A stretch of DNA of 32,000 nucleotides from Chlorobiota bacterium (GCA_016868665.1 VGGK01000001.1:106762-138761); one strand, 5' to 3'; positions 1,432 through 26,758 are shown, counted from the stretch's first letter. The notes: generated by a model not told the origin, from the letters alone. Translations and numbers: made by a program.

Positions 1432-2507
1432 GTGTTCGATGATTTAGGAATTGACGGTACAAGTTCGTGCTCCAGTGTGTGCTGGATATTGTAGAGAACT
1501 TCTAATTCGTCGGTTATCATGTCGGCCAGCCAGCAGGCAAATTCCGGGGATTCATTGATGCAGCGAACATACTGCGCCCTGCTGAAACCTGCACGATCAA
1601 GAACTTTACGCGCCTCGTACTCGGTTTCGCTGTTATCGGCGAAAAAACCGTAGGGAAACATCACAACATTTTCGATACCCTCTTCCTGAAATGCGGCAAG
1701 AGCTTTCTGCACGGTTTCCGATGTCCACTCTCCACCCGCCGAATGGTTCATGCAGCCCTGACGGATATCAGTGAAGAAATTTCTGGGATCGTTCATGATA
1801 CGCTCTTTCATCAAGTCGAAAAAAAGCCTCGTTTCATCGAGACCGGTAAAAACCCTGGGAGGATTTCCGGCCCTGTCCCTTACAAGTGTTCCATGGATGA
1901 CCAGAACCAGCCCGGTTCGAGTAGTATCTATAATTGATGCATCGAGTTCGGAAAAGAGGTGATCGATATAAATCCGGTGCAGTTCAGGCTCTTTCCAGAG
2001 TTTGTTGAGCAGGCGGATACTGCCGTAGCGCATATCGCCGAACTGTTCGGCTATCATCCTGCATGCAACGCCGCACGAAAACGCCGACTCGACGGGAATC
2101 ATCGGCACTATAACAATTCCGTCGTAGTTCCGCTCGTTCACTTTGAGTACATCCTCGAGATACGGGGGAACGAAATAATATGCATCGAATATATCGGCAT
2201 CGAGCGAATCGAAAATATCCGCGCGGCTCCCGGCAAGGCAACGGGCTATCGCCCTCGTCTGAGCCCTGTTTATCGACAGCAGCGATGAACGGTAGCCGTT
2301 CAGCCGCCAGTTGATGAAATGCCTGGTCGAACGGTAATCGGCAATGAAATAGACAAGAAACTTCGGAACCTTCACAATCTGGCTGGTAATCACCTTGAGT
2401 ATCCGTCTCGAACTCGGCCAGAGATTCCGCAGCGTCAATCTCTCCACCTCGCCATACGTAACGATCAGAACTGCATACCGTTTTTTCCCTATAACCCTAT
2501 CCACCAT
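1428..2507 (-). CDS. Ferrochelatase-family protein (HemH-like)
   Basis: 359-aa ORF with an ATG start. The N-terminus AVLIVTYGE...FIADYRSTRHFINWRLNGYRSSLLSINRAQTRAIARCL resembles the ferrochelatase LLxNLGxP...IAxxRxxxxxxxYxxIGGxSPLxxxTxxQ block. VIHGTLV resembles SAHGLP, and the C-terminal FPYGFFADNSETEYE resembles P(I)GFVSDHxETLxE. This is a hand comparison only. Confidence 0.6.
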   Translation of the reverse strand: MVDRVIGKKRYAVLIVTYGEVERLTLRNLWPSSRRILKVITSQIVKVPKFLVYFIADYRSTRHFINWRLNGYRSSLLSINRAQTRAIARCLAGSRADIFDSLDADIFDAYYFVPPYLEDVLKVNERNYDGIVIVPMIPVESAFSCGVACRMIAEQFGDMRYGSIRLLNKLWKEPELHRIYIDHLFSELDASIIDTTRTGLVLVIHGTLVRDRAGNPPRVFTGLDETRLFFDLMKERIMNDPRNFFTDIRQGCMNHSAGGEWTSETVQKALAAFQEEGIENVVMFPYGFFADNSETEYEARKVLDRAGFSRAQYVRCINESPEFACWLADMITDELEVLYNIQHTLEHELVPSIPKSSNT

Positions 2508-3088
2508 CTCAGTTCGGCATACATTAAAACAAACCCGATGATCCCCCCGACAAGTGTCTGCATGAAATTATGCGCTTTCAGGTATATTCTCGACCACATC
2601 AGAACGGGAACCAGGACACAAAGGAACAATGCTCCGGAACCGAACTGCAGGAACAGCAGCGAGATGCATGACGAAAGCGTAAAGAGATGAATGCTGATCT
2701 TCCATTGCAGGGTAACAAGGAGAATAAGCACCGTATTGACGGCATTGAACAGCAGAATGCCGCTTAGCAGTCTCGGCGCGTCGAGCTGCTGCATGAACTC
2801 GTAACCAAGAACGTTCACCCCGGTCAGCACAAGCAGAGGAAGAAAACGCTGTTCCCTGAACGTAATATTGTAATCCGAAACCTTGCCGATTTTTTTCAGT
2901 CCGTAAATCAGCAGCATAGGCGCAACCGTGCTTGATGCAAACAGCACCGTCAGATAGGAAAACCTCGAAGGATCTTCAGGATAACCGAACAGCACGACAA
3001 CGCAGAAGACCAGAGGAGCCACGACAACAGGACTAATTGCCCATGAAAGCAGATCTGCAAAACGGTGAACATCAAAACGCATGGGCAC
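2489..3088 (-). CDS. Polytopic membrane protein, PAP2-like (weak motif match)
   Basis: 199-aa ORF with about 6 hydrophobic helices. KISIH and SRIYLKAHNFMQTLVGG loosely fit PAP2 motifs C2 (SGH) and C3 (SRxxxxxHxxxD, with D replaced by Q). The track start is GTG at 3088, and an ATG lies at 3082. The 3' end overlaps the next gene by 19 nt. Confidence 0.5.
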   Translation of the reverse strand: MPMRFDVHRFADLLSWAISPVVVAPLVFCVVVLFGYPEDPSRFSYLTVLFASSTVAPMLLIYGLKKIGKVSDYNITFREQRFLPLLVLTGVNVLGYEFMQQLDAPRLLSGILLFNAVNTVLILLVTLQWKISIHLFTLSSCISLLFLQFGSGALFLCVLVPVLMWSRIYLKAHNFMQTLVGGIIGFVLMYAELRWWIGL

Positions 3089-3190: not shown

Positions 3191-3272
3191 GCGAGAGTGG
3201 TGAAATTGGTATACACGCTAGTCTTAGGAACTAGTGCCGTGAGGCGTAAGGGTTCGAGTCCCTTCTCTCGCA
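3191..3272 (+). tRNA. tRNA-Leu (anticodon TAG), type II with long variable arm
   Basis: Folded by hand. The acceptor gcgagag pairs with ctctcgc. The anticodon stem is ctagt/actag with loop cTTAGga (anticodon TAG). The T arm is aaggg-ttcgagt-ccctt, the discriminator is A, and no CCA is encoded. Confidence 0.9.
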
Positions 3273-3288
3273 CATCGTTTTTTATCAT

Positions 3289-3375
3289 GCCAAAGTGGCG
3301 GAACTGGTAGACGCGCTGGACTCAAAATCCAGTGGGCGCAAGCTCGTGTGGGTTCGAGTCCCACCTTTGGTACCA
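3289..3375 (+). tRNA. tRNA-Leu (anticodon CAA), type II, CCA encoded
   Basis: Folded by hand. The acceptor gccaaag pairs with ctttggt (G1-U72 wobble). The anticodon stem is ctgga/tccag with loop ctCAAaa. The T arm is gtggg-ttcgagt-cccac, the discriminator is A3372, and CCA lies at 3373..3375. Confidence 0.9.
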
Positions 3376-14632: not shown

Positions 14633-16324
14633 ATGAACATCATTTACAAAATAGGCAAAAATAATCCGCTTGAGCAACTCATGCACCGCAATTACTTTAC
14701 GCTTTATCATACCGCGATGGAACTGCATGCGAGGCTTACCAGCGGATTCGTCTTCGAAATCCACTCACAGCATAAAAACGAACTGACGCTCAGTTTCATC
14801 ACTGCGGCTGGAGAACACCTGCAGGTAATAATTGTGTTGCGAGTCCCGGAACTGTGCATTTTCACAAGGGAAGGGATGAACCGCTGCAAACGGCAAAGTG
14901 CGAACCTCCTGCATGCTGCCTGTGAACGGGAGGTGCAAGGTGTCTCAATGTCGCCCTGCGACCGTGAAATACTCATCAGCCTTTCTGGAGACTACACGCT
15001 TGTACTGAGACTTTTCAGCGCCTCAGCCAATGCGTTTCTCGTCACAGAAGAAGGGACTGTTGCCGATGCCTGTATTGCCGGAAAAACCCTTATCGGAACT
15101 GCATATCGCGATAAAGCCGACCGATCGTCACCTGATATCATCAGGGAACTCGAACGGCTTGCACAGCAGAAAGAACGATTTTTTGCACTTGTCGGAATCG
15201 CTGAAGACAGTAAACCGCAACTGTCCCCAGGGTCTCTGCCAGGCTTCGACCAGGCAATGCTGCGCACCCTTTCCGAACGGGCAGGAGAAAGCGGCGATCC
15301 TGAGGATGTTTTCGATGCCTTCAGGGACATGTTCTACGAACTGCTCGATCCGTTGCCGCAGACCGGACGAACACCGCAAGGCAAACCGCTCTTCAGCATC
15401 CTGCACAGGCCGCTGCCTGAGAGCCGAAGGTATGCATCTGTGCTCGAAGGGCTGAACCGATACAGCTCGGCCATGTGGAGCTGGCTGCACGCCATGCAGG
15501 AACGGGGCGAGTTCGAAACGAAATTGCGGCAGCAACTGCGAAAAATCGAAAAGGAACTCCAGGAGCACGATCCCGGGATGCTTGCCGGACAAGCCGATGA
15601 TTATCAAACCAGAGGGCATCTGCTCATAGGAGCTCTTTCGTTTGAACGCACTCTGTCGGACAACATAACCGTACCCGACATCTTTAATCCGGACCAACCG
15701 GATATCTCCATCAGCCTGAAACCCGAACTTTCTCTCAGCGACAACGCGGCGGAATATTTCAGAAAAGCCGCCAAAACGCGGGAAAAAATAAGAACCATGA
15801 AACGGCGAAAAACAGAACTCGAAGAACGCAAAGCCCTGCTTGAATCGCTTTCCGGAGAAATCACCTCCCTCCTTTCCCCAAAGGGAATAAAACAATTCCT
15901 CGAAGCCCGCAGATCGGAATTGCGGAGAACCGGCATAGAGCCGACAAAAACCGCTTCCGGAATTACCTCCCGATTCAGAACCGTTAAACTAACGGCATCG
16001 GCCACGCTCTATATCGGCAAAAACGCGACTAACAACGATCATCTCACATTCTCTTTCGCCAAGCCGAATGATATCTGGCTCCATGCGAGGGGCAGTTCAG
16101 GGTCGCACTGCGTGCTGCGCGGTGTCACCCTCCAGCAGAAAGAAGAGATCCGAAGAGCCGCGGAGTATGCGGCAAGATACTCGGCCGCAAAACATTCCGA
16201 ACTGGTGCCGGTAATGTATGCACTGAAAAAACATGTGCGCCGTTCGAAACGGCTTGCGCCAGGCCAGGTACTGATCGAACGGGAAGAGGTTATCATGGTT
16301 CACCCTGCAACAGAAGCGGATTGA
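14633..16324 (+). CDS. NFACT family protein (RqcH / FbpA-like, DUF814-containing)
   Basis: 563-aa ORF. The C-terminal NFACT-R (DUF814) signature is [17 protein letters not shown]...AA.YSAAK. The N-terminal NFACT-N-like region has a DR dipeptide ([11 protein letters not shown]), and the middle is coiled-coil rich. An alternative ATG at 14681 ([10 protein letters not shown]...) would widen the otherwise 17-nt divergent gap to the dCMP deaminase gene. Confidence 0.8.
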
Positions 16325-18307: not shown

Positions 18308-19150
18308 CTAAAAAGTCACCGTCACCCCCAAAAGCGGCACCGGCTCTGAAGACTCGGCGTAACCGTGCTCCATCCGAACCTCTTCATCGTTGATCATGTT
18401 GCCGACAGCCAAACCGACGGCGGTTCCGATGGCGGCTCCGACGATGGTATCGGAAAGCCAGTGCTTGTCGTCGTAGACTCGCTGCATCGCGGTAAGTGTC
18501 GAAAGAGCGTAGAGCCCAACTGTCGCCCATGGCCTCTTTATTCTGGTGCTGAGAGCGGAAGAGACCGCAAAAGCAGAAGTGGCGTGTCCCGAAGGAAACG
18601 ACCAGTTCGGATTTTCAGTCGCAAACAATGAAAAACGCGTGTTCCCTTCCTGTTTGAACGGACGACTCCGGCCTGTCGTGGCCTTGAGCACACCGGTGAT
18701 CATCATTGCGAACGTATGCGCTTCGAGAACCGCTCTGCCGGTCAGCCGGACATCGTCAGCACCTGCAAGAATTCCTCCGAGATAGATCAGCGACCCAACT
18801 CCATAACCGGTACGAAACCGGCCATAGTAGTCGCCGACAGGCATTACCGTATCAAGAAACGGAGTGTGATGGTTCAGAGCGAAGTCACGGACCGGTTCGT
18901 CAAAAAAGAGCGTCGACAAGGTTGCCGCTCCGGCTATGGCAGCAACCCTCATCCAGTCGCTGTCGTCGAAATGCGCCGGCGAAGAAAACACCCCCCTGAA
19001 ATCGCGATAAAACCCTGTGGCGTCCTGTGAGAACATATCACCGGTACTTTCGCCCCTGCCTGTCCAGGGACAGCATAGCTGCAGAATCGTAACAGCAAAA
19101 AAGATAAACCTGATTACGCCCTCAGCAGCTATGCTGCGGAAAGCGGACAT
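18308..19150 (-). CDS. PAP2-family phosphatase (secreted/membrane)
   Basis: All three PAP2 motifs are present: KATTGRSRP, PSGH, and QRVYDDKHWLSD (an SRxxxxxHxxxD-type C3 in which Q replaces the motif Ser). I trimmed the start to the ATG at 19150, giving the signal-like N-terminus MSAFRSIAAEGVIRFIFFAVTILQL. Upstream ATGs lie at 19171 and 19180. Confidence 0.8.
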   Translation of the reverse strand: MSAFRSIAAEGVIRFIFFAVTILQLCCPWTGRGESTGDMFSQDATGFYRDFRGVFSSPAHFDDSDWMRVAAIAGAATLSTLFFDEPVRDFALNHHTPFLDTVMPVGDYYGRFRTGYGVGSLIYLGGILAGADDVRLTGRAVLEAHTFAMMITGVLKATTGRSRPFKQEGNTRFSLFATENPNWSFPSGHATSAFAVSSALSTRIKRPWATVGLYALSTLTAMQRVYDDKHWLSDTIVGAAIGTAVGLAVGNMINDEEVRMEHGYAESSEPVPLLGVTVTF

Positions 19151-19244
19151 TTTGCGGTGAACGCTTAACATAGGCCGCATGTTATAGTGAAAAATCCATA
19201 TCCCGGCCTTGAGTGTCGGCCGATTTTCAGAATGTACTTTTTTT

Positions 19245-20456
19245 ATGGATAATACGACATCGATCACAGAGAAGGCCGCAGATTACGTATTCAGACTGTT
19301 CAGGGAAAAAGAGAACGGCTGCTGCCCATATCACAATTATGCACATACCGCTGAAACCGTTGATACCTGCCGGGAAATAGCTGAAGGTATGAACGCGACG
19401 GCGTCAGAAACAGAGATTCTCATGCTCGCTGCCTGGTTTCACGATACCGGCTGTCTTTTCGGTATCCGGGATCATGAGCAGAAAAGCACTGAAATCGCAA
19501 AAGATTTTCTCAGGGAAAACGGTTATCCGGAAGAAGATACCGAACAGGTATGCCGCTGCATCCTTGCAACGAAACTGCCGCAACAACCGCGTTCAATGCT
19601 TGAAGAGATCATCTGCGATGCCGATCTCTCACATCTCGGAAAACCCGGATACCGCCAGAAAAGCGAGCTTGTAAGGCTTGAACTGGAAAAAAATGATAAC
19701 AGAAGTTTCAGCGATATCGAATGGCTGAAGCTTAACATCGACTTTTTCAACAGGAACCCGTTCCGAACGAAATATGCAAGCCTTGCTTTCAATACCGATC
19801 GAAAAAAAAATCTTGTTGATCTGCACCAGCGGCTGAGAAAAAAAAACAGCGCGGAAGAAGATGATGCGGGGAGGAATCGGGAATCGGAGGAAAAGCAAAA
19901 GAAAAAAACAAAAGGCAAGGACGTGCCGGAAAGAGGCCTCGAACGCAACATGGAGGTCTACTACCGAACCTCGTCAAGAAACCACGTCGATTTCAGCGCC
20001 ATTGTCGATCATAAAGCAAATATCATGATCCAGACAAATTCGCTCATTTTTTCGATCATCATATCACTTCTGGTCAGAAAACTCGACGAATTTCCTGAAC
20101 TGGTGGCGCCGACTTTTGTGCTGCTGCTCAGTTGCGTAGCAACAATCATCACATCAGTGCTGGCAACAAGGCCGAAAGTGACGAGGTCAAATACCACCCT
20201 GGAAAGCATCAGGGAAAGAAAAGCAAACCTTCTCTTTTTCGGGTCATTCATCAACCTCCGCCTTGATGAATTCGAATGGGGCATGAAAGAGATGCTGAAT
20301 GACAAATCGTACTACATCGACAATATGATTCGCGACACCTATTTCCTGGGGAAAGTGCTTGATTACAAATACAGATTCCTCCGTCTGTCCTACGATATTT
20401 TCATGATCGGACTGGTTGTATCGATCGGCCTTTACGCCTTTGCGTTCATGAAGTGA
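19245..20456 (+). CDS. HD-domain phosphohydrolase fused to a C-terminal 3-TM PycTM/DUF5706-like module
   Basis: I trimmed the start to the ATG at 19245, because the track start is TTG at 19209. The HD residues are YHNYAH, WFHDTG and CDADLSH. A Lys/Glu-rich linker spans about 19800..19931. The C-terminal region (19950..20453) begins YYRTSSRNHVDFSAIVDHKANIMIQTNSLI and holds three hydrophobic helices. I recognise it from memory as Pfam PF18967-like, and this is not verified. Confidence 0.75.
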   Translation: MDNTTSITEKAADYVFRLFREKENGCCPYHNYAHTAETVDTCREIAEGMNATASETEILMLAAWFHDTGCLFGIRDHEQKSTEIAKDFLRENGYPEEDTEQVCRCILATKLPQQPRSMLEEIICDADLSHLGKPGYRQKSELVRLELEKNDNRSFSDIEWLKLNIDFFNRNPFRTKYASLAFNTDRKKNLVDLHQRLRKKNSAEEDDAGRNRESEEKQKKKTKGKDVPERGLERNMEVYYRTSSRNHVDFSAIVDHKANIMIQTNSLIFSIIISLLVRKLDEFPELVAPTFVLLLSCVATIITSVLATRPKVTRSNTTLESIRERKANLLFFGSFINLRLDEFEWGMKEMLNDKSYYIDNMIRDTYFLGKVLDYKYRFLRLSYDIFMIGLVVSIGLYAFAFMK

Positions 20457-21570
20457 GAGCCGCTCTGTCTTCCGGCATAAACGCATCGATACGGTAGAGA
20501 CAGATATCCTGCAGTCGGCCTTTAAGCTTCAGACAACCAATGAACTCAGTATTGAGCTCATTGAGGTTCTTAATGGGAAAAAGGAGGAACAGCTCTTCGG
20601 AAACAAGAAGGCTCGCATGATGAGCCACACACTCGGCCTGGATTCTTGACGCGGTATTGACGGTATCCCCATGAAAAACCACCTCTTTTTTCAGATCGCC
20701 TACCTCCCCGGCAATCACTTTTCCGGCATGCATGCCGGCTTTGAACTTCGGCTTGTAATGATAAGCGCTCATGTACTTGTCGGAAAGCTCCTCCATCTTG
20801 CTCTGGATATCGAAGAAACACCGCACACAATTTATTTTTTTCGCGCCCTGCCTTATATCCCAGGTCACAACGACAGCATCTCCGACATATTGATAGACCT
20901 CCCCGGAATACCGTGAAATAATATCCGAAATATCGTTAAACACGTCGTACAGCAGATCGTGGTAGCGTGCATGGCCGATTTTTTCGGCAACCGCCGTCGA
21001 TCCGTACAGGTCCATGAACATGAACACCCGCTCTTCCTCATGAGGAATACGATAACGGTCCGTCACCGTATCGAGAATTTTTTTTTCACCTACACGACTG
21101 ACAATCAGATGAAATGTCCGGATGGGAAACGAAACAAAAAAGAGAAAAAGCAGCAGGGGAATACTTTCGATATGCATGAAAAGATAAAGGGATGCTTCAG
21201 GATCGCCGTATCCTGGAACTGAAACAGCGATAACCGTATGCTCTACAGCTGTAAAGATAAAAAGACCGGTCATTGCAGCAAGCACATAAAGCGCCGTACC
21301 CGTCAGCAACGACCGGAAAAAGCCGAGGTTTTTCGTCAGTCCTGTAACAATATAAAGGTTGGCTGCGGCAACAGTCAGACCGGCAGCCAGGGCAAGTGAA
21401 AAAAAATGAAAAACAGAGTGCGCATCCTGAGAAAAGGGGTAAACAGACATCGTTTTTCCTGCAACTGTCATCAGGAGAAAATAAGCGATGAACGCCATCA
21501 GATATTCGGCTGTGATCCAGAATGCGGTTACTGTTTTCTGTATGGTCTTGTTTTCAAACTTCATCGACAT
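20446..21570 (-). CDS. Membrane-anchored class III adenylate/guanylate-type nucleotide cyclase
   Basis: I trimmed the start to the ATG at 21570 (MSMKFENK...). The N-terminal ~180 aa holds about 6 hydrophobic helices. The cyclase homology domain has FMFMDLYGST, YVGDAVVVTW, GMHAGKVIAGEVG and HGDTVNTASRIQ. The 3' end overlaps the convergent HD gene by 11 nt. Confidence 0.85.
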   Translation of the reverse strand: MSMKFENKTIQKTVTAFWITAEYLMAFIAYFLLMTVAGKTMSVYPFSQDAHSVFHFFSLALAAGLTVAAANLYIVTGLTKNLGFFRSLLTGTALYVLAAMTGLFIFTAVEHTVIAVSVPGYGDPEASLYLFMHIESIPLLLFLFFVSFPIRTFHLIVSRVGEKKILDTVTDRYRIPHEEERVFMFMDLYGSTAVAEKIGHARYHDLLYDVFNDISDIISRYSGEVYQYVGDAVVVTWDIRQGAKKINCVRCFFDIQSKMEELSDKYMSAYHYKPKFKAGMHAGKVIAGEVGDLKKEVVFHGDTVNTASRIQAECVAHHASLLVSEELFLLFPIKNLNELNTEFIGCLKLKGRLQDICLYRIDAFMPEDRAALTS

Positions 21571-21631
21571 AATGTATTCAACTCGAAAAACGGCAATCCT
21601 TTTTTGCAATATCTGCAATAAAAAAGAAAAG

Positions 21632-21658
21632 AAAAACCCGGATCGCTCCGGGTTTTTT
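21632..21658 (-). terminator. Rho-independent terminator (looks bidirectional) between the Omp85-fusion gene and the cyclase gene
   Basis: The stem is ACCCGGA(21636..21642)-tcgc-TCCGGGT(21647..21653). It is flanked by an A run (21632..21636) and a T run (21653..21658). On the minus strand the hairpin is followed by TTTTTcTTTTcTTTTTT. It lies about 150 nt after the stop at 21805. Confidence 0.6.
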
Positions 21659-21804: not shown

Positions 21805-24558
21805 CTAAAAGCTGAAACCCGTCCTGAAATAAATCCCGTAATCATCCATCAGGCGTCCATCGTCAAAGCCTCTGGCGTAGACGATACTTGCACTGTATCT
21901 CGATTCGATAAATCCGAACCACATACCGCTGCCAGCAGAGGTATGCCATGCAGAGGAGTCTTCTCCATCGAGAAAAACCCTGCCGGTTTCCAGGAATGCA
22001 ATCGGCCCGTAGATGACAGGAACGAGAAACTTGAAGGAACCCAGATAGAGACGCAGTTCAGAACCTGCATAGAGCGATGCGTCGCCGGAAAAACGCTGCC
22101 TGTCGTAGCCTCGGAGCGAAGTCGATCCTCCGAGATAAGCCGCTTCCCAGAAAGGATAGTCGCCCCAAAGTTTTTCTCCTCCGATCCGCAGCACCAGACG
22201 GGAATATCCGGGTGTCGAGAAGGGGATATAAGTACGCACTTCTCCACGCAATCTCGTAAACGTTTCGTCATTACCGAAAAATTCCGGATAGTGGCTCGCT
22301 TCCAGATCCACAAGCATGCCGCTTGTAGCTGAAGTGGTACCTCCCCCTTCGCTTCCGGCAAGCCGTCCGGCCTGCTTGCGGGGAGAAAGCTCCACATAAT
22401 CGCCGCTCTGGCGGGAATCGTAGTGAAACCCTATATGGAAACTGCCGGAAAAATCAGTGTCGATACCAGGAATGTCTGCACGATTGAGATCGATGAACGA
22501 ACCCGGTTCGATATCAAGATCAACCCATTTTGCTCCGAATCCGGCGCTCCAGCGGTACTGTCTGTCCATCGGGTAACGCAGCGAGACCCTGATGCTCGTC
22601 ATCTGGTTCAATAACTCGAAATCATCCTCCCTCATGCCTGAACCCCTGAAGTAGTTTTCATTGCCCAGACCATAAAAGTTCATCATATCGAGACCCGAGG
22701 TACCGGCTTCCAGAAGAAGACTCGCATTACGGAACAGTGTCCTGAAATCTCCCCGGTAGTACAACTGGTAACGAAAATCGTCGCCTGCTGCCACCCCTCC
22801 GTTAAGCCGCATGTTGTAACGATAGGGTTCCGACCTGAAGCCATAATCCTCTACCGAAAATCCCCAACCGAGATACGGCCCGTAATCCGGCGAGTAATTA
22901 AGATCGACGCCGGTAATGTTGGCAACGACTTCCTGTCCCGAATCCCTTGGTCTGAGATCGTATTTATCCTTGTCTTCCTTGGGTTCCGGCTTGGCCTGAT
23001 GCCGGTCAACAACCGTATAGCGGGTACCGGAAAATTCCGACCGGTCGCCATGATCATAAAAAAAAGTCATCTTTTCGGCCGTCCATGGGTATCCGGCAGC
23101 AGGTTTTTCTGTACGGTCTTCGAACCTGTCCGCACCCTCACCTCCGATAACCCTTACCTTGAGGCTGTTTTTAACCACCGGCCCATCAACAAGTACAGCA
23201 TCATCGCCGTCTCCGAGATAGAGGCGAACTTCCCGGGTTTCACGGGGATCGAACACCCTCCGGTAAACGGACTGCCCTGAAACCTCCCCGGGCAAATCGG
23301 CTTTACGGAACACGGAAACCTCTACCTGGCCATCCTGAAGACGATGAACTCTGGCAAATTCGGGTTTATCGCTGGCGAATACATCCACATCCTCTGCGTA
23401 GAGCAGATAGAGTTCCTCAGACGCTTTGCTCAGGAGATCCCGTCTGGATCGCAAATCCCGTTCGAGAAGCTCTCCTTCCTTTGCATACATTGCCGGCGGC
23501 ATCCTGCCGACAGCGCGCCCGATGACCTCATCGGTCAGCTTCATCTGCAGTTCTGCAGTCACGGCATTCCATTCATCCCTGCCGATTCCCGAAAGCAGCC
23601 TCCGGTCAAGCGGCCTGCCGGACCAGCTCAGATATCTGATGTCCGCATACTTCCCGCCGAAACCCTCGATCTGGGGAATGATCTGGGTAATGATCCACGA
23701 AAAGATTCCATCCTGTCGCGAAAACGCATTATCCCTGTCGCGTGGAACAGGAACCCATACAGTAGCCCCTTCTTTTTTATAACCGGCCCATCGCCACTGA
23801 TCGGAGTGACGATCCCAGTCTCCAATGAAAAGGTCGATCAGCCTGGCGCGAAGAAAGGCCCTTGCATCGATCCTGTTTGCACTGTCATCTTCAAGGTTGT
23901 CGAAAACCTTGTAGGTTCCGGATACTCTATCGGCCGCCTTGAAGCCGGCTCCGGGTACAGAGCTCTGTTCGGGATGTTCCTCGATAGTTCCGACCAGACC
24001 GGCAAATTCATCGTAAAACTGCCCAAGAAAAGCCTTGTCGTAAGGCATCACGACAATTTTCGGAGCGACATTGCAGACTCCCGCAGCATCCAGGAGAGGA
24101 GGAATAATCTGACCTGAAACCGGATTCGATGTGCTTACCTGATCCTGTACGACATCGGACACCACGGTATTTCGCAGTTTGGGAGGCATTCCCCTCGCCG
24201 GGTCCTTGTCGAGCGTTCTGAAACGGTACTCCTTGCCGTCCGAACCCCTGAAACGAAGACTGACAGTCTGAAAACCGCCACCTTTTTCCAGCGGAGTCAA
24301 CCCGCCGGCAAAGGTTCCGGGATCGAGAACAGGAACTTCGACCGGTGTTGTCCAGAGCGATCTCCAGTGTTCGCCGAAAATAAGGGTATGCAGGGCACCG
24401 GCCTTATAATCCGCCCCGGGCACAACAGTGACGAGGCTGCGACCGGCAACACTTTCAAACGGTATTTTTGCCGGCTGAGCCTCAACGATGGCCGGATGCA
24501 GGATCGATGGGCAAGAAATGACAAACGCACAGGCAATACCTCTCAGAAATAAATTCAT
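21805..24558 (-). CDS. Secreted outer-membrane protein: Omp85/D15-type beta-barrel fused to a large uncharacterised N-terminal domain
   Basis: I trimmed the start to the ATG at 24558, giving the signal peptide MNLFLRGIACAFVISCPSILHPAIVEAQ. The C-terminal third has the Omp85 loop-6-type motif GGSTSLRGYDRQRFSGD (RGY codons 22105..22113), alternating beta-strand patterning and a terminal ...YFRTGFSF. The N-terminal ~520 aa is not recognised as POTRA. Confidence 0.8.
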   Translation of the reverse strand: MNLFLRGIACAFVISCPSILHPAIVEAQPAKIPFESVAGRSLVTVVPGADYKAGALHTLIFGEHWRSLWTTPVEVPVLDPGTFAGGLTPLEKGGGFQTVSLRFRGSDGKEYRFRTLDKDPARGMPPKLRNTVVSDVVQDQVSTSNPVSGQIIPPLLDAAGVCNVAPKIVVMPYDKAFLGQFYDEFAGLVGTIEEHPEQSSVPGAGFKAADRVSGTYKVFDNLEDDSANRIDARAFLRARLIDLFIGDWDRHSDQWRWAGYKKEGATVWVPVPRDRDNAFSRQDGIFSWIITQIIPQIEGFGGKYADIRYLSWSGRPLDRRLLSGIGRDEWNAVTAELQMKLTDEVIGRAVGRMPPAMYAKEGELLERDLRSRRDLLSKASEELYLLYAEDVDVFASDKPEFARVHRLQDGQVEVSVFRKADLPGEVSGQSVYRRVFDPRETREVRLYLGDGDDAVLVDGPVVKNSLKVRVIGGEGADRFEDRTEKPAAGYPWTAEKMTFFYDHGDRSEFSGTRYTVVDRHQAKPEPKEDKDKYDLRPRDSGQEVVANITGVDLNYSPDYGPYLGWGFSVEDYGFRSEPYRYNMRLNGGVAAGDDFRYQLYYRGDFRTLFRNASLLLEAGTSGLDMMNFYGLGNENYFRGSGMREDDFELLNQMTSIRVSLRYPMDRQYRWSAGFGAKWVDLDIEPGSFIDLNRADIPGIDTDFSGSFHIGFHYDSRQSGDYVELSPRKQAGRLAGSEGGGTTSATSGMLVDLEASHYPEFFGNDETFTRLRGEVRTYIPFSTPGYSRLVLRIGGEKLWGDYPFWEAAYLGGSTSLRGYDRQRFSGDASLYAGSELRLYLGSFKFLVPVIYGPIAFLETGRVFLDGEDSSAWHTSAGSGMWFGFIESRYSASIVYARGFDDGRLMDDYGIYFRTGFSF

Positions 24559-24749
24559 GGCAGGATCTCGTTGAAATGAAACATCCGATAGACGACAAAG
24601 AGAAAAACAGGAAAACAACGGAACCGGATGACTATCAGAAAAGAAGATAGCCAATCATGGAACAAGAGCAATAAACCCGGAAAGAATACAACAGTAAAGC
24701 AATAATGAAACGTTCTTTATTACACGTACACAATAGAATTGGTTACCAT

Positions 24750-25640
24750 TCATTCTCGGAACCTGTAGACGGCAGCTCTTCCTCGCAGCATATCTTCGCT
24801 GCTTATCAGCAGAGAGTTGTCAGGCAATACAGCTACACCTTCCGGTTGCGGGTGATATACCGAAGGGAGGCTCTGCAGATCTATCAGGGAACCGGTACGG
24901 TAATCGATTTCTGCAATAAGCCTTGAACCCGACGAAACAATGATAAAATTGCCCGAAAGAGGGTGTCTGGTTATCCCCGAAGGCCTGAAGCCTTTTTTTC
25001 CTGCAGATTCGGCAACATGCCGGGCATCGATAAAAAAACGGGCTTGCCGGCTGAGTTTGTTTGCAGTGAGAGAAAACGAATAAACAGGGCGAGATGCCGA
25101 TTGGTCGAAGGGTTTCTTGCCTGCGCTCCCTTTGCATGCGAGCAGAAGCGAAGCAGTCGAAGGGTCATGACACAACCCTTCAACTTCATACGAAGAACCA
25201 ATCCCTGTCTTATAGACAATGGCCTGCACCGATTCATTATCCCTCCCCTCGCGGAACTCATAGAGTTTCCCTGAACTGGTAACCAGAAAAAAACGGTCCC
25301 CGGCTATGGCGATATCTTCGAAATCGTCTTCAACTCTTCCATTTCCAAACCAGCGTCTGGTTACCACATGAAATCGCTTGATGACCGTTCCGTTCGAAGG
25401 ATCCAGTTGATAAATCGTCGAAACCTCGTCATCATGCGCAAACAGTTTTCCAGTCCGGGAAACCGCGACACCGGATATTTCTCGAAGAGACGTCGGCAGG
25501 ACAAGCTGACGGAATGGCTTGCCCGCAAGATCGTAGCGGTGCAACAGACCGGGAGCATCGGATAAAACAGGATTAACCGGGCAAAGAATGAAAACGGCGA
25601 TTGCGAACAGTGTCGAAAACCGATGAAGCGTTCTTTTCAT
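24750..25640 (-). CDS. SdiA-regulated/YjiK-like beta-propeller protein, secreted
   Basis: I trimmed the start to the ATG at 25640, giving the signal peptide MKRTLHRFSTLFAIAVFILCPVNPVLS. LREISGVAV...DDEVSTIYQLDP.NG.VI and the C-terminal PEGVAVLPDNSLLISSE....VYRF resemble the E. coli YjiK family pattern (EISGL..., AEGVAMD..G.IYIVSEPN.FYRF), recalled from memory. Confidence 0.7.
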   Translation of the reverse strand: MKRTLHRFSTLFAIAVFILCPVNPVLSDAPGLLHRYDLAGKPFRQLVLPTSLREISGVAVSRTGKLFAHDDEVSTIYQLDPSNGTVIKRFHVVTRRWFGNGRVEDDFEDIAIAGDRFFLVTSSGKLYEFREGRDNESVQAIVYKTGIGSSYEVEGLCHDPSTASLLLACKGSAGKKPFDQSASRPVYSFSLTANKLSRQARFFIDARHVAESAGKKGFRPSGITRHPLSGNFIIVSSGSRLIAEIDYRTGSLIDLQSLPSVYHPQPEGVAVLPDNSLLISSEDMLRGRAAVYRFRE

Positions 25641-25684
25641 AATAAAACATCTATCCGGACAAAAAAACTGACATGGAGATCTCG

Positions 25685-26758
25685 TCATGCGAGCAGATGA
25701 ATACGGGAAAACACGTAATCGAGATGGTCCTCATTAAGTACGATACGATAATACCCTGAATTCCCGAGTTCCTGGGGACGGTTATCCCGATCGCTGCTGA
25801 ATTTTCGGCTCTGCTTGCCATTGAACCAGTATACCAGACGGATGATGTTTCCTTCGATTTCAAGAGCGGTGATGCCCCGTTTGCCGATAGCACAGCCTGA
25901 ATTGAAAACACTCGGGATGGTCAGCGTATTGTAAAGACCGCTTCGCAACCCTATTTTTTTGCCCTGCTTGTAACAGGAATCCAGTTCTTCTTTTAGTGAG
26001 TCTATTTTTTCCCTGATAGAAATTCTTTCTTCTGTTTTCGCAGACGGATAAGCCCGGCATAGTTCCTCGATGCGATAGTTCAGATAATCGACTTTCGAGA
26101 GTGATTCAAAAAGCGGCCGGTGGGTGTGGCCGATAACCGATACGATCTTTGCGTTATTGGAAAAGTCGTAAATGGATTTCTCTATAGCAAACCTTCTGCG
26201 GCTGTTATAGGCAATTGAAAAATTCCGGATACCTGCCGGCTTTGCGATATAACGAAGAAAAAACACAACTGAACGACTGACGAGTGGATAGGTTTCCCAG
26301 AGCAGGACCGACGCCTGATGGCCATGAAAAAGCAGCAGGGTCTCTTTTCCGTAAAAAAACCTGAGCGCTTCGATCATGTAAGGAGCAAGCCTGTAGTCCC
26401 GGTCGTCGAGCAGAGCCGCATCATGGTTGCCGTAGGTTTTATAAAAAAAACCGTTGTGCTCGAACTTAAGAAACAGATCGTAAAACGCATTCCACTCTTC
26501 GGTAATGCTATGGAGGGAAAATTTGAACAACTCCTCGATATCGCCGTTAAGTACCAGGCTGTATTGGCCGGGATAATAAAAATCCGCAAGCATGGTCTTG
26601 ACGAGATCGGCGTTACGACGGAATTCGTCGCGCCGCCCCCCGTTGCCCATATGCAGGTCGCTGAGAATCAGAACTCTTGAGGAGCCGTCGAGAACTACAG
26701 GATGGGCATTGCCAAGAAGGCGTTCAAGGTGAGGATGTTTCTTGTGATGTGGCTGCAT
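25685..26758 (-). CDS. Metallophosphoesterase (calcineurin-like, LpxH-like motif set)
   Basis: 357-aa ORF with an ATG start. The motifs are LILSDLHMGNG, LNGDIEE, YGNHD, FHGH and IGHTHRP. Confidence 0.85.
   Translation of the reverse strand: MQPHHKKHPHLERLLGNAHPVVLDGSSRVLILSDLHMGNGGRRDEFRRNADLVKTMLADFYYPGQYSLVLNGDIEELFKFSLHSITEEWNAFYDLFLKFEHNGFFYKTYGNHDAALLDDRDYRLAPYMIEALRFFYGKETLLLFHGHQASVLLWETYPLVSRSVVFFLRYIAKPAGIRNFSIAYNSRRRFAIEKSIYDFSNNAKIVSVIGHTHRPLFESLSKVDYLNYRIEELCRAYPSAKTEERISIREKIDSLKEELDSCYKQGKKIGLRSGLYNTLTIPSVFNSGCAIGKRGITALEIEGNIIRLVYWFNGKQSRKFSSDRDNRPQELGNSGYYRIVLNEDHLDYVFSRIHLLA

Follow-up and report, generated by a model that had tools for sequence, protein, structure and literature searches.

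Two convergent genes on a 32,000-nucleotide stretch of DNA from a Chlorobiota bacterium (GCA_016868665.1 VGGK01000001.1:106762-138761; the whole stretch is called the window below) raise the question of whether they form a dedicated signalling pair, possibly even a variant of the Pycsar anti-phage systems, or whether they are independent core genes. The first, at 19245-20456 on the plus strand, encodes a protein of 403 amino acids (aa), here called HD-PycTM, in which an HD phosphohydrolase domain is joined to a three-transmembrane (3TM) module of the PycTM type. The second, at 20446-21570 on the minus strand, encodes a membrane class III nucleotidyl cyclase of 374 aa. A preliminary description of the locus, made from the sequence alone, had proposed that the two work together. 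The answer which we favour, with some reserve, is that they are independent, vertically inherited core genes without a dedicated signal/effector relationship, and that HD-PycTM, probably a phosphohydrolase or a pore of the membrane, is tied to phosphate/polyphosphate and the envelope.

Spread and inheritance of HD-PycTM

A homologue search using the HD-PycTM protein resulted in 3,184 matches, and among the 120 listed nearly all were proteins of ~390-450 aa carrying both HD and PF18967. Relatives are encoded in at least 597 species genomes. The identity to HD-PycTM of the window is 74-95% in Chlorobium-like genomes, 56-62% in Prosthecochloris and 51-56% in Chloroherpeton-like genomes, followed by the more distant Ignavibacteria (~39-47%) and Bacteroidota (35-43%). 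Identity thus tracks taxonomy, as expected for a core gene passed on vertically, and HD-PycTM is a large vertically inherited family confined to the Fibrobacteres-Chlorobi-Bacteroidetes (FCB) group, i.e. Chlorobiota, Ignavibacteria and Bacteroidota. The caveat given in the preliminary description, that HD proteins with DUF5706 (PF18967) may be housekeeping proteins in Chlorobiota/Bacteroidota, proved justified by the spread of the family and by its loci. No full-length match was found on phages, and the only 3 full-length plasmid matches were on non-mobilizable Bacteroidota megaplasmids. A standalone PycTM was not found among plasmids by BLAST.

All other annotated genes of the window are housekeeping genes, including those for riboflavin synthesis, ferrochelatase, MgsA, DnaE, a thioredoxin-reductase-like protein, SpoU and NFACT, and no mobile or defence hallmarks were seen among them; the absence of mobile-element hallmarks at the flanks of the pair had been noted before. 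With such neighbours, with an identity that follows taxonomy, and with megaplasmids as the only extrachromosomal carriers of full-length matches, the locus has the features of neither a defence island nor a patchily distributed, fast-evolving system.

These observations bear on the possibility of a bona fide anti-phage Pycsar variant acting by abortive infection. The cyclase and HD-PycTM match PADLOC hidden Markov models, PycC and PycTM, respectively, and homologues of HD-PycTM are labelled 'Pycsar system effector family protein' at NCBI. We nevertheless regard such a variant as very improbable, since the family is passed on vertically and evolves slowly (mean column identity of 45% over the three groups), the surroundings consist of housekeeping genes only, phages and mobile plasmids do not carry the family, the two genes are not in one operon, and the PycC matches are non-specific according to the OaPAC control given below.

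Linkage of the cyclase and HD-PycTM genes

We used 80 loci around HD-PycTM homologues with 6-kb flanks, together with the window, as a set of 81 loci, which was searched for cyclases and in which open reading frames were clustered. A cyclase of the window family was found within 6 kb of HD-PycTM in 11/81 loci. These comprise all five Chlorobiaceae loci (the window included), 4 of the 19 Ignavibacteria and 2 of the 46 other Bacteroidota, with none in the two Chloroherpeton-like loci and none in nine unclassified metagenome-assembled genomes. Outside Chlorobiaceae and Ignavibacteria there is accordingly no nearby cyclase in 55/57 HD-PycTM loci. Starting from the cyclase side gave the same picture, as 0/9 sampled cyclase homologues outside Chlorobiaceae have HD-PycTM within 8-9 kb. 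In the complete genome of Chloroherpeton thalassium the cyclase orthologue adjoins genes for a PAS kinase and a response regulator at 0.17 Mb, whereas HD-PycTM is found at 2.19 Mb, so that the two are ~2 Mb apart.

Within Chlorobiaceae, Prosthecochloris aestuarii included, the order methyltransferase, HAD, PAP2, HD-PycTM, cyclase, Omp85-like, phytase-like, metallophosphoesterase is syntenic. As the whole block is conserved, the adjacency of the two genes can be explained by descent alone.

The 3' ends of the two genes overlap convergently by 11 bp, as had been described, with stop codons TGA at 20454-20456 (plus strand) and tca at 20446-20448 (TGA on the minus strand). This overlap is not conserved, the other Chlorobiaceae having anything from a 66-bp gap to a 17-bp overlap. 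Upstream of the cyclase, a strong intrinsic-terminator-like hairpin at 21622-21657 on the minus strand (11-bp stem AAAAACCCGG...CCGGGTTTTT followed by a T tract) lies between the stop codon of an Omp85-like gene and the start of the cyclase, and therefore the cyclase looks monocistronic and transcribed on its own. A common transcript of the two genes in the window, Omp85-like and cyclase, was considered and is unlikely, because the terminator intervenes. No riboswitch was found near the genes in an Rfam scan. With convergent orientation, a terminator upstream of the cyclase and an adjacency limited to Chlorobiaceae, the two genes do not behave as a co-inherited single operon.

The functional pair of the preliminary description, where the product of the cyclase would activate HD-PycTM or be hydrolysed by it and HD-PycTM would then act on the membrane, has to be weighed against these data. 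It draws on a PycTM homology which is real, on the adjacency in 5/5 Chlorobiaceae loci at ~56-95% protein identity, on the distant likeness of the HD fold to the cyclic nucleoside monophosphate (cNMP) phosphodiesterases PDE5/10/2 (E 0.04-0.2) and on the non-canonical Gln/Val specificity residues of the cyclase. The pair is conserved in one family only, however, where the PAP2-to-metallophosphoesterase block is syntenic and descent suffices; the proximity is looser and variable in the 4/19 Ignavibacteria; the genes are convergent and transcribed separately; phosphodiesterases are less similar to the HD domain than YpgQ-type enzymes are; and no cyclase is nearby in ~70/81 HD-PycTM loci. With the C. 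thalassium genes at distant sites and 55/57 loci lacking a cyclase, the two genes have proved to be largely unlinked in other genomes, and we consider a dedicated two-gene system quite unlikely.

Domains, fold and conservation of HD-PycTM

The ATG at 19245 is the likely start of the HD-PycTM gene, because a 95%-identical homologue (P0001) also begins MDNTTS. On the plus strand, the HD phosphohydrolase domain is encoded at 19317-19829 (aa ~25-195), a Lys/Glu-rich helical linker at 19830-19952 (aa ~196-236) and the PycTM/PF18967-like 3TM module at 19953-20453 (aa ~237-403, comprising TM1, TM2, an insert and TM3). Both reading frames were recovered at the coordinates given above, and the features listed in the preliminary description, i.e. 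the HD motifs YHNYAH, WFHDTG and CDADLSH, the Lys/Glu-rich linker, the YYRTSSRNHVDFSAIVDHKANIMIQTNSLI opening of the module and three hydrophobic helices, are all present in the translation and its hydropathy profile.

The Pfam profile search assigned HD (PF01966) to aa 32-127 with 28.2 bits (cutoff 22) and PycTM (PF18967) to aa 279-389 with 101.2 bits (cutoff 27.2, E 5e-29). The latter family had already been named in the preliminary description, and this assignment now stands; membership of PF18967 follows from a score that exceeds the gathering threshold and from the three TM helices with their soluble insert. PADLOC PycTM profiles cover aa 248-401, corresponding to 85% of the model, and PDLC02364 (E 6.5e-13) is matched at model positions 17-152 of 160. 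Some PADLOC '2TM effector' profiles for the cyclic-oligonucleotide-based anti-phage signalling system (CBASS) match the protein as well. As the PycTM profiles have a length of 154-165 positions and are filled by the C-terminal module alone, the HD domain has more likely been added to a module already complete than put in place of a sensor, which makes the earlier view that it occupies the sensor position doubtful.

Three transmembrane (TM) helices were found by hydropathy at aa 259-277, 290-308 and 380-402. The AlphaFold2 model has a predicted local distance difference test (pLDDT) score of 86.6, with helices at 231-279, 284-308 and 354-402, the insert at 310-352, and low pLDDT in the linker at aa 222-228. 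Both approaches agree on a layout consisting of an all-helical HD domain, a long Lys/Glu-rich stalk, TM1, TM2, a soluble helical insert of ~70 aa and TM3.

Across 50 HD-PycTM homologues no variation was seen in the metal-binding H30, H66-D67 and D127. The HD fold is nearest to YpgQ/YedJ-type enzymes (YpgQ 5dqw, Foldseek E 3e-3, TM-score 0.73 when normalised to the target), and weaker Foldseek matches were obtained to cNMP phosphodiesterases, the PPX/GppA C-terminal domain and HD-GYP. The PF01966 score above cutoff, the H...HD...D residues and the fold place the domain in the HD superfamily. The most conserved region of the protein is the soluble insert of the 3TM module, with a mean column identity of 0.72 and 24/69 columns at 90% or above, including the invariant motifs NLLFFG and LG.VL..KY. 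The HD core has a mean identity of 0.59 and the linker, which is the least conserved part, one of 0.38. Since the insert is conserved beyond the HD core, the 3TM module is more than a membrane anchor.

The class III cyclase

The cyclase gene encodes an N-terminal membrane region at 21061-21570 and a cyclase homology domain at 20449-21060, both on the minus strand. Pfam Guanylate_cyc (PF00211) matches aa 183-352 with E 8e-15, i.e. a complete class III domain. Hydropathy resulted in four hydrophobic segments at aa 16-37, 52-75, 88-118 and 128-157; the membrane anchor and the complete catalytic domain of the preliminary description were thus found again, the number of helices being ~4 instead of the ~6 claimed. 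Across 23 members of the cyclase family the metal-binding D187 and D231 as well as R309 do not vary, while N305 is shared by at least 90% of the members. With two metal Asp residues and the transition-state Asn and Arg, the protein has the full residue set of a class III cyclase, and as all catalytic residues are present in a single cyclase homology domain, a homodimer is implied.

The positions specifying the base are occupied by an invariant Gln227 (YQYVGD) and by Val298 (VVFHGD), which is Val/Ile/Ala across the family. In the alignment the OaPAC equivalents are Lys (KFIGD) for Gln227 and Thr (YTILGD) for Val298, and neither canonical pair (Lys/Asp or Lys/Thr for ATP; Glu/Cys for GTP) is present in the cyclase of the window. 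With this non-canonical Gln/Val pair the product is therefore not predictable from sequence. A Gln at the purine-specifying position is also known from Rv0386 of M. tuberculosis, which is still mainly an adenylyl cyclase, and consequently Gln alone does not imply a pyrimidine product. The family with the invariant Gln is a reasonable candidate for a product screen.

Sequence and family-profile comparisons both led to OaPAC, CyaB and soluble guanylyl cyclase as the nearest solved relatives, and no uridylate/cytidylate or Pycsar-named cyclase entries were among the PDB matches listed. We used OaPAC, a known adenylyl cyclase, as a control for the PADLOC models. Its catalytic domain scored 82.8 and 68.5 bits on the 'PycC' models PDLC00734 and PDLC02367; on the model giving 82.8 bits for OaPAC, the window cyclase has its best score, 45.9 bits. 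The PycC matches are therefore non-specific, and they were rejected as a sign of a Pycsar cyclase; a lone PADLOC PycC match cannot separate Pycsar cyclases from ordinary class III cyclases. Given this control, the signalling-cyclase relatives and the membrane anchor, the cyclase is not of the PycC type.

Two further observations were made on the cyclase family. In 5 Bacteroidota loci an unannotated soluble protein of ~201-220 aa is encoded before the cyclase homologue on the same strand (L082:7348-7986, L086:7394-8023, L087:7274-7879, L089:8283-8906, L091:8184-8846). The five proteins have 34-47% identity among each other and an invariant GPLTNLQDARS-AAVG motif, and no such protein is encoded in the window. 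This ~210-aa protein may be the real conserved partner of the cyclase family. In Ignavibacteria, tandem arrays of 3-4 paralogous 4TM cyclases were found (L085:4651-9044, L088:5654-10047, L005:10137-13203).

Conserved neighbours of HD-PycTM

The top conserved neighbour is an Omp85-like outer-membrane protein, present in 52/81 loci. Different classes have it in different orientations, an argument for selection on proximity. A SixA-like histidine phosphatase is present in 23/81 loci, including 15/19 Ignavibacteria, and PPK1 with all four domains (E 1e-68) in 18/81. By group, PPK1 is linked in 10/19 Ignavibacteria, 2/2 Chloroherpeton-like, 3/9 unclassified and 3/46 other Bacteroidota loci. PAP2 is found in 15/81 loci and occupies the same position in 5/5 Chlorobiaceae; in the window it is encoded at 18308-19267 on the minus strand, divergent from HD-PycTM. 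Other recurrent neighbours are phytase-like/SdiA-regulated propellers and calcineurin-like metallophosphoesterases. In the window, the SdiA-regulated/phytase-like beta-propeller gene of this conserved neighbourhood is found at 24750-25688 and the metallophosphoesterase gene, which is syntenic in Prosthecochloris, at 25685-26758, both on the minus strand.

In Ignavibacteria and Chloroherpeton, HD-PycTM is followed on one strand by the SixA-like gene and then by PPK1, the gaps being 9-18 bp in several loci (L003, L004, L008). The same row, somewhat wider in spacing, is present in the complete C. thalassium genome, and the trio persists in other gene orders as well (L018, L023, L026, L032, L033, L036). 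From other lineages, phosphate islands are known in which SixA lies beside ppk and ppx (PMC10734472). The Chlorobiaceae cyclase is located between HD-PycTM and the Omp85-like gene, at the place where Chloroherpeton and Ignavibacteria carry SixA-like and PPK1.

The Omp85-like gene of the window (21805-24654, minus strand, 949 aa) encodes a C-terminal barrel, and no Pfam match was found for the N-terminal ~690 aa. The protein is orthologous to its flavobacterial counterparts (E 1e-86), with 26% identity over ~850 aa to a 1,246-aa version. Flavobacteriia have the metallophosphoesterase as part of the Omp85-like protein, whereas the window has a gene of its own for it. In the flavobacterial 1,246-aa protein it forms an extra N-terminal domain, and the architecture recalls surface enzymes of the passenger-plus-barrel (type Vd-like) kind. 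A fusion/fission relationship between this domain and the metallophosphoesterase of the window was considered and discarded, as BLAST did not support homology.

A soluble, unannotated protein of ~793 aa (cluster c2_793) is present in 37/81 loci, all of them among the other Bacteroidota, where it is encoded directly beside HD-PycTM in 37/46 (e.g. L054:2714-5095, L035:7191-9566), often with ends overlapping by a few bases. Sequence searches of Pfam, NCBIfam and PDB resulted in no match. In one Prosthecochloris locus (L084:1-5400) pstSCAB-like phosphate ABC transporter genes and a Porin_5 gene precede the syntenic block; the pst genes fit the phosphate theme, and the window carries different genes at the corresponding distance.

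These neighbourhoods are also the basis of another explanation, namely a signalling module of Chlorobi-Ignavibacteria in which the product of the 4TM cyclase regulates an envelope/phosphate cluster (Omp85-like, phytase-like, metallophosphoesterase, HD-PycTM, PPK1), possibly including HD-PycTM itself, in a physiological and not an immune role. The gene found most consistently beside the cyclase is the Omp85-like one: the two are immediate, co-directional neighbours in the window and in four further loci (L001, L002, L012, L015), and in L030 the cyclase reaches into the start of the Omp85-like gene. On two Ignavibacteria contigs (L085, L088), which are near-identical and hence not independent, a row of Omp85, phytase-like and a second Omp85 gene has four tandem cyclases directly downstream, and three tandem cyclases converge on the HD-PycTM / SixA-like / PPK1 row in L005. 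The 4/19 Ignavibacteria with a cyclase within 6 kb add to this. On the other hand, the 55 of 57 loci without a cyclase include both Chloroherpeton-like ones, the terminator divides the cyclase from the Omp85-like gene in the window, and the cyclases of Bacteroidota are found in unrelated contexts with a different conserved upstream partner. We find a neighbourhood-wide module of this kind unlikely, though a loose link of the cyclase to the neighbourhood may exist in this lineage.

Proposed function and its limits

Under the reading which we prefer, two independent core genes, HD-PycTM would be an inner-membrane protein with its HD domain in the cytosol, as the predicted N-in topology suggests. 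The HD domain, having the fold and the metal residues of an active YpgQ/YedJ-type phosphohydrolase, would be connected by the helical stalk to the 3TM module. PucTM has been solved by cryo-EM as a hexameric channel (bioRxiv 10.64898/2026.08.12.744502), and by analogy the 3TM module probably oligomerises in the membrane. The conserved cytosolic insert would probably serve as a ligand-binding or gating surface, or as a contact to a partner protein. The company of PPK1 and SixA-like, Omp85-family, phytase-like and PAP2 proteins argues for phosphate/polyphosphate handling at the envelope rather than for phage defence. As HD-PycTM, in its row with SixA-like and PPK1, would correspond in position to ppx in the ppx-sixA-ppk groupings of other lineages, a nucleotide or polyphosphate phosphohydrolase at the membrane would be its most likely activity. 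The cyclase is regarded as an autonomous, catalytically complete enzyme of the homodimer type with four TM helices, related to signalling adenylyl/guanylyl cyclases. It would most likely make cyclic AMP in response to a membrane or envelope cue, and given Gln/Val an unusual product is possible.

Several points weigh against this reading. The phosphate/polyphosphate role is deduced from guilt by association, and the PPK1 and SixA-like genes are absent from the window itself; the remaining Chlorobiaceae loci likewise show no linkage to PPK1. Effectors activated by cyclic mononucleotides are homologues of the 3TM module, and the strong constraint on the insert would fit a cNMP-gated function as well. 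Many of the loci end at contig ends, so that all neighbour counts are lower bounds. The cyclases found nearby in 11/81 loci occupy several different positions (L005, L014, L020, L030, L047, L052), and, provided that such cyclase loci are few in each genome, this proportion probably exceeds chance; for the 4/19 Ignavibacteria the level would be well above chance, assuming few cyclase loci per genome of ~3-4 Mb. Moreover, an interaction needs no adjacency, and the cyclase and HD-PycTM share a phylum-level distribution.

A bolder version can be formulated, which we put forward as a long shot. HD-PycTM would be a housekeeping equivalent of the TM effectors of Pycsar/CBASS type, which may even have evolved from it: a nucleotide-gated oligomeric pore of the inner membrane with an HD hydrolase, forming a phosphate/polyphosphate system across the envelope together with PPK1, the SixA-like protein and a surface phosphoesterase linked to Omp85, and gated in Chlorobiaceae and some Ignavibacteria by the perhaps non-canonical product of the neighbouring 4TM cyclase.

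Apart from function, the results carry a warning for annotation. A family which is named 'Pycsar system effector' and matches PADLOC PycTM is a core gene in at least 597 species genomes, and the PycC models give high scores to ordinary adenylyl cyclases; such loci could therefore be miscounted as defence systems. The PycTM-type module exists in a non-immune, slowly evolving, HD-fused form, which offers an entry point to the role of the module outside immunity and to polyphosphate/envelope biology. In the literature no paper was found on the HD-fused PycTM branch or on its PPK1/SixA-like/Omp85 neighbourhood, and none of relevance on Omp85 combined with a metallophosphoesterase.

Remaining genes of the window

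Three observations concern other parts of the window. Two adjacent tRNA genes (RF00005, ~60 bits each) are located at 3191-3272 and 3289-3372 on the plus strand, between a PAP2-like and a HIT-family gene. A second open reading frame of the PAP2 superfamily, at 2489-3088 on the minus strand (199 aa), has a score of 24.7 bits, below the Pfam cutoff of 27.2, and adjoins the ferrochelatase gene. A protein of the NFACT/RqcH type with NFACT_N and NFACT-R, belonging to a ribosome-quality-control family, is encoded at 14633-16324 on the plus strand.

Comparison with known systems

The HD domain resembles the YpgQ/YedJ-type HD phosphohydrolases (5dqw, 3gw7, 2pjq, 2pq7, 3b57), with a target-normalised TM-score of 0.66-0.76 and the same H...HD...D residues. 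Those proteins are soluble, ~180-215 aa long and 12-20% identical, whereas in HD-PycTM the domain is tethered to a 3TM module.

The cyclase has a single complete domain after an N-terminal membrane region, as in the membrane- or sensor-coupled class III adenylyl cyclases (the catalytic domains of OaPAC and CyaB; Rv1625c-type). It differs from the Rv1625c-type TM cyclases in having 4 predicted TM helices rather than 6, and from OaPAC in having Gln/Val instead of Lys/Thr.

With regard to gene order, HD-PycTM heads an operon-like row with SixA-like and PPK1 in Ignavibacteria and Chloroherpeton, similar to ppk-ppx / ppx-sixA-ppk clusters. Unlike Ppx in those clusters, HD-PycTM is not of the Ppx/GppA family and is not known to act as a polyphosphatase, and the Chlorobium locus of the window is without SixA-like and PPK1.

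The closest comparison is to the Pycsar/Pucsar TM effectors PycTM and PucTM (PF18967, the 'pJV1-SpdB3 3TM' family). The C-terminal ~165 aa of HD-PycTM are homologous to these, with three TM helices and a helical soluble insert, presumably cytosolic, between TM2 and TM3. The similarity to the standalone effectors is seen by profiles only. In contrast to PycTM and PucTM, HD-PycTM has an additional N-terminal HD domain on a helical stalk, is inherited vertically, has phosphate and envelope genes as neighbours, and has no PycC/PucC cyclase encoded alongside. Of the features defining Pycsar, the locus has the PF18967 module and lacks the other three, namely a PycC-clade cyclase, an operon inherited as a unit and surroundings of the defence or mobile kind. 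The locus should therefore not be classed as Pycsar; within the PycTM/3TM family it represents a separate branch, fused to HD and apparently with a housekeeping role.

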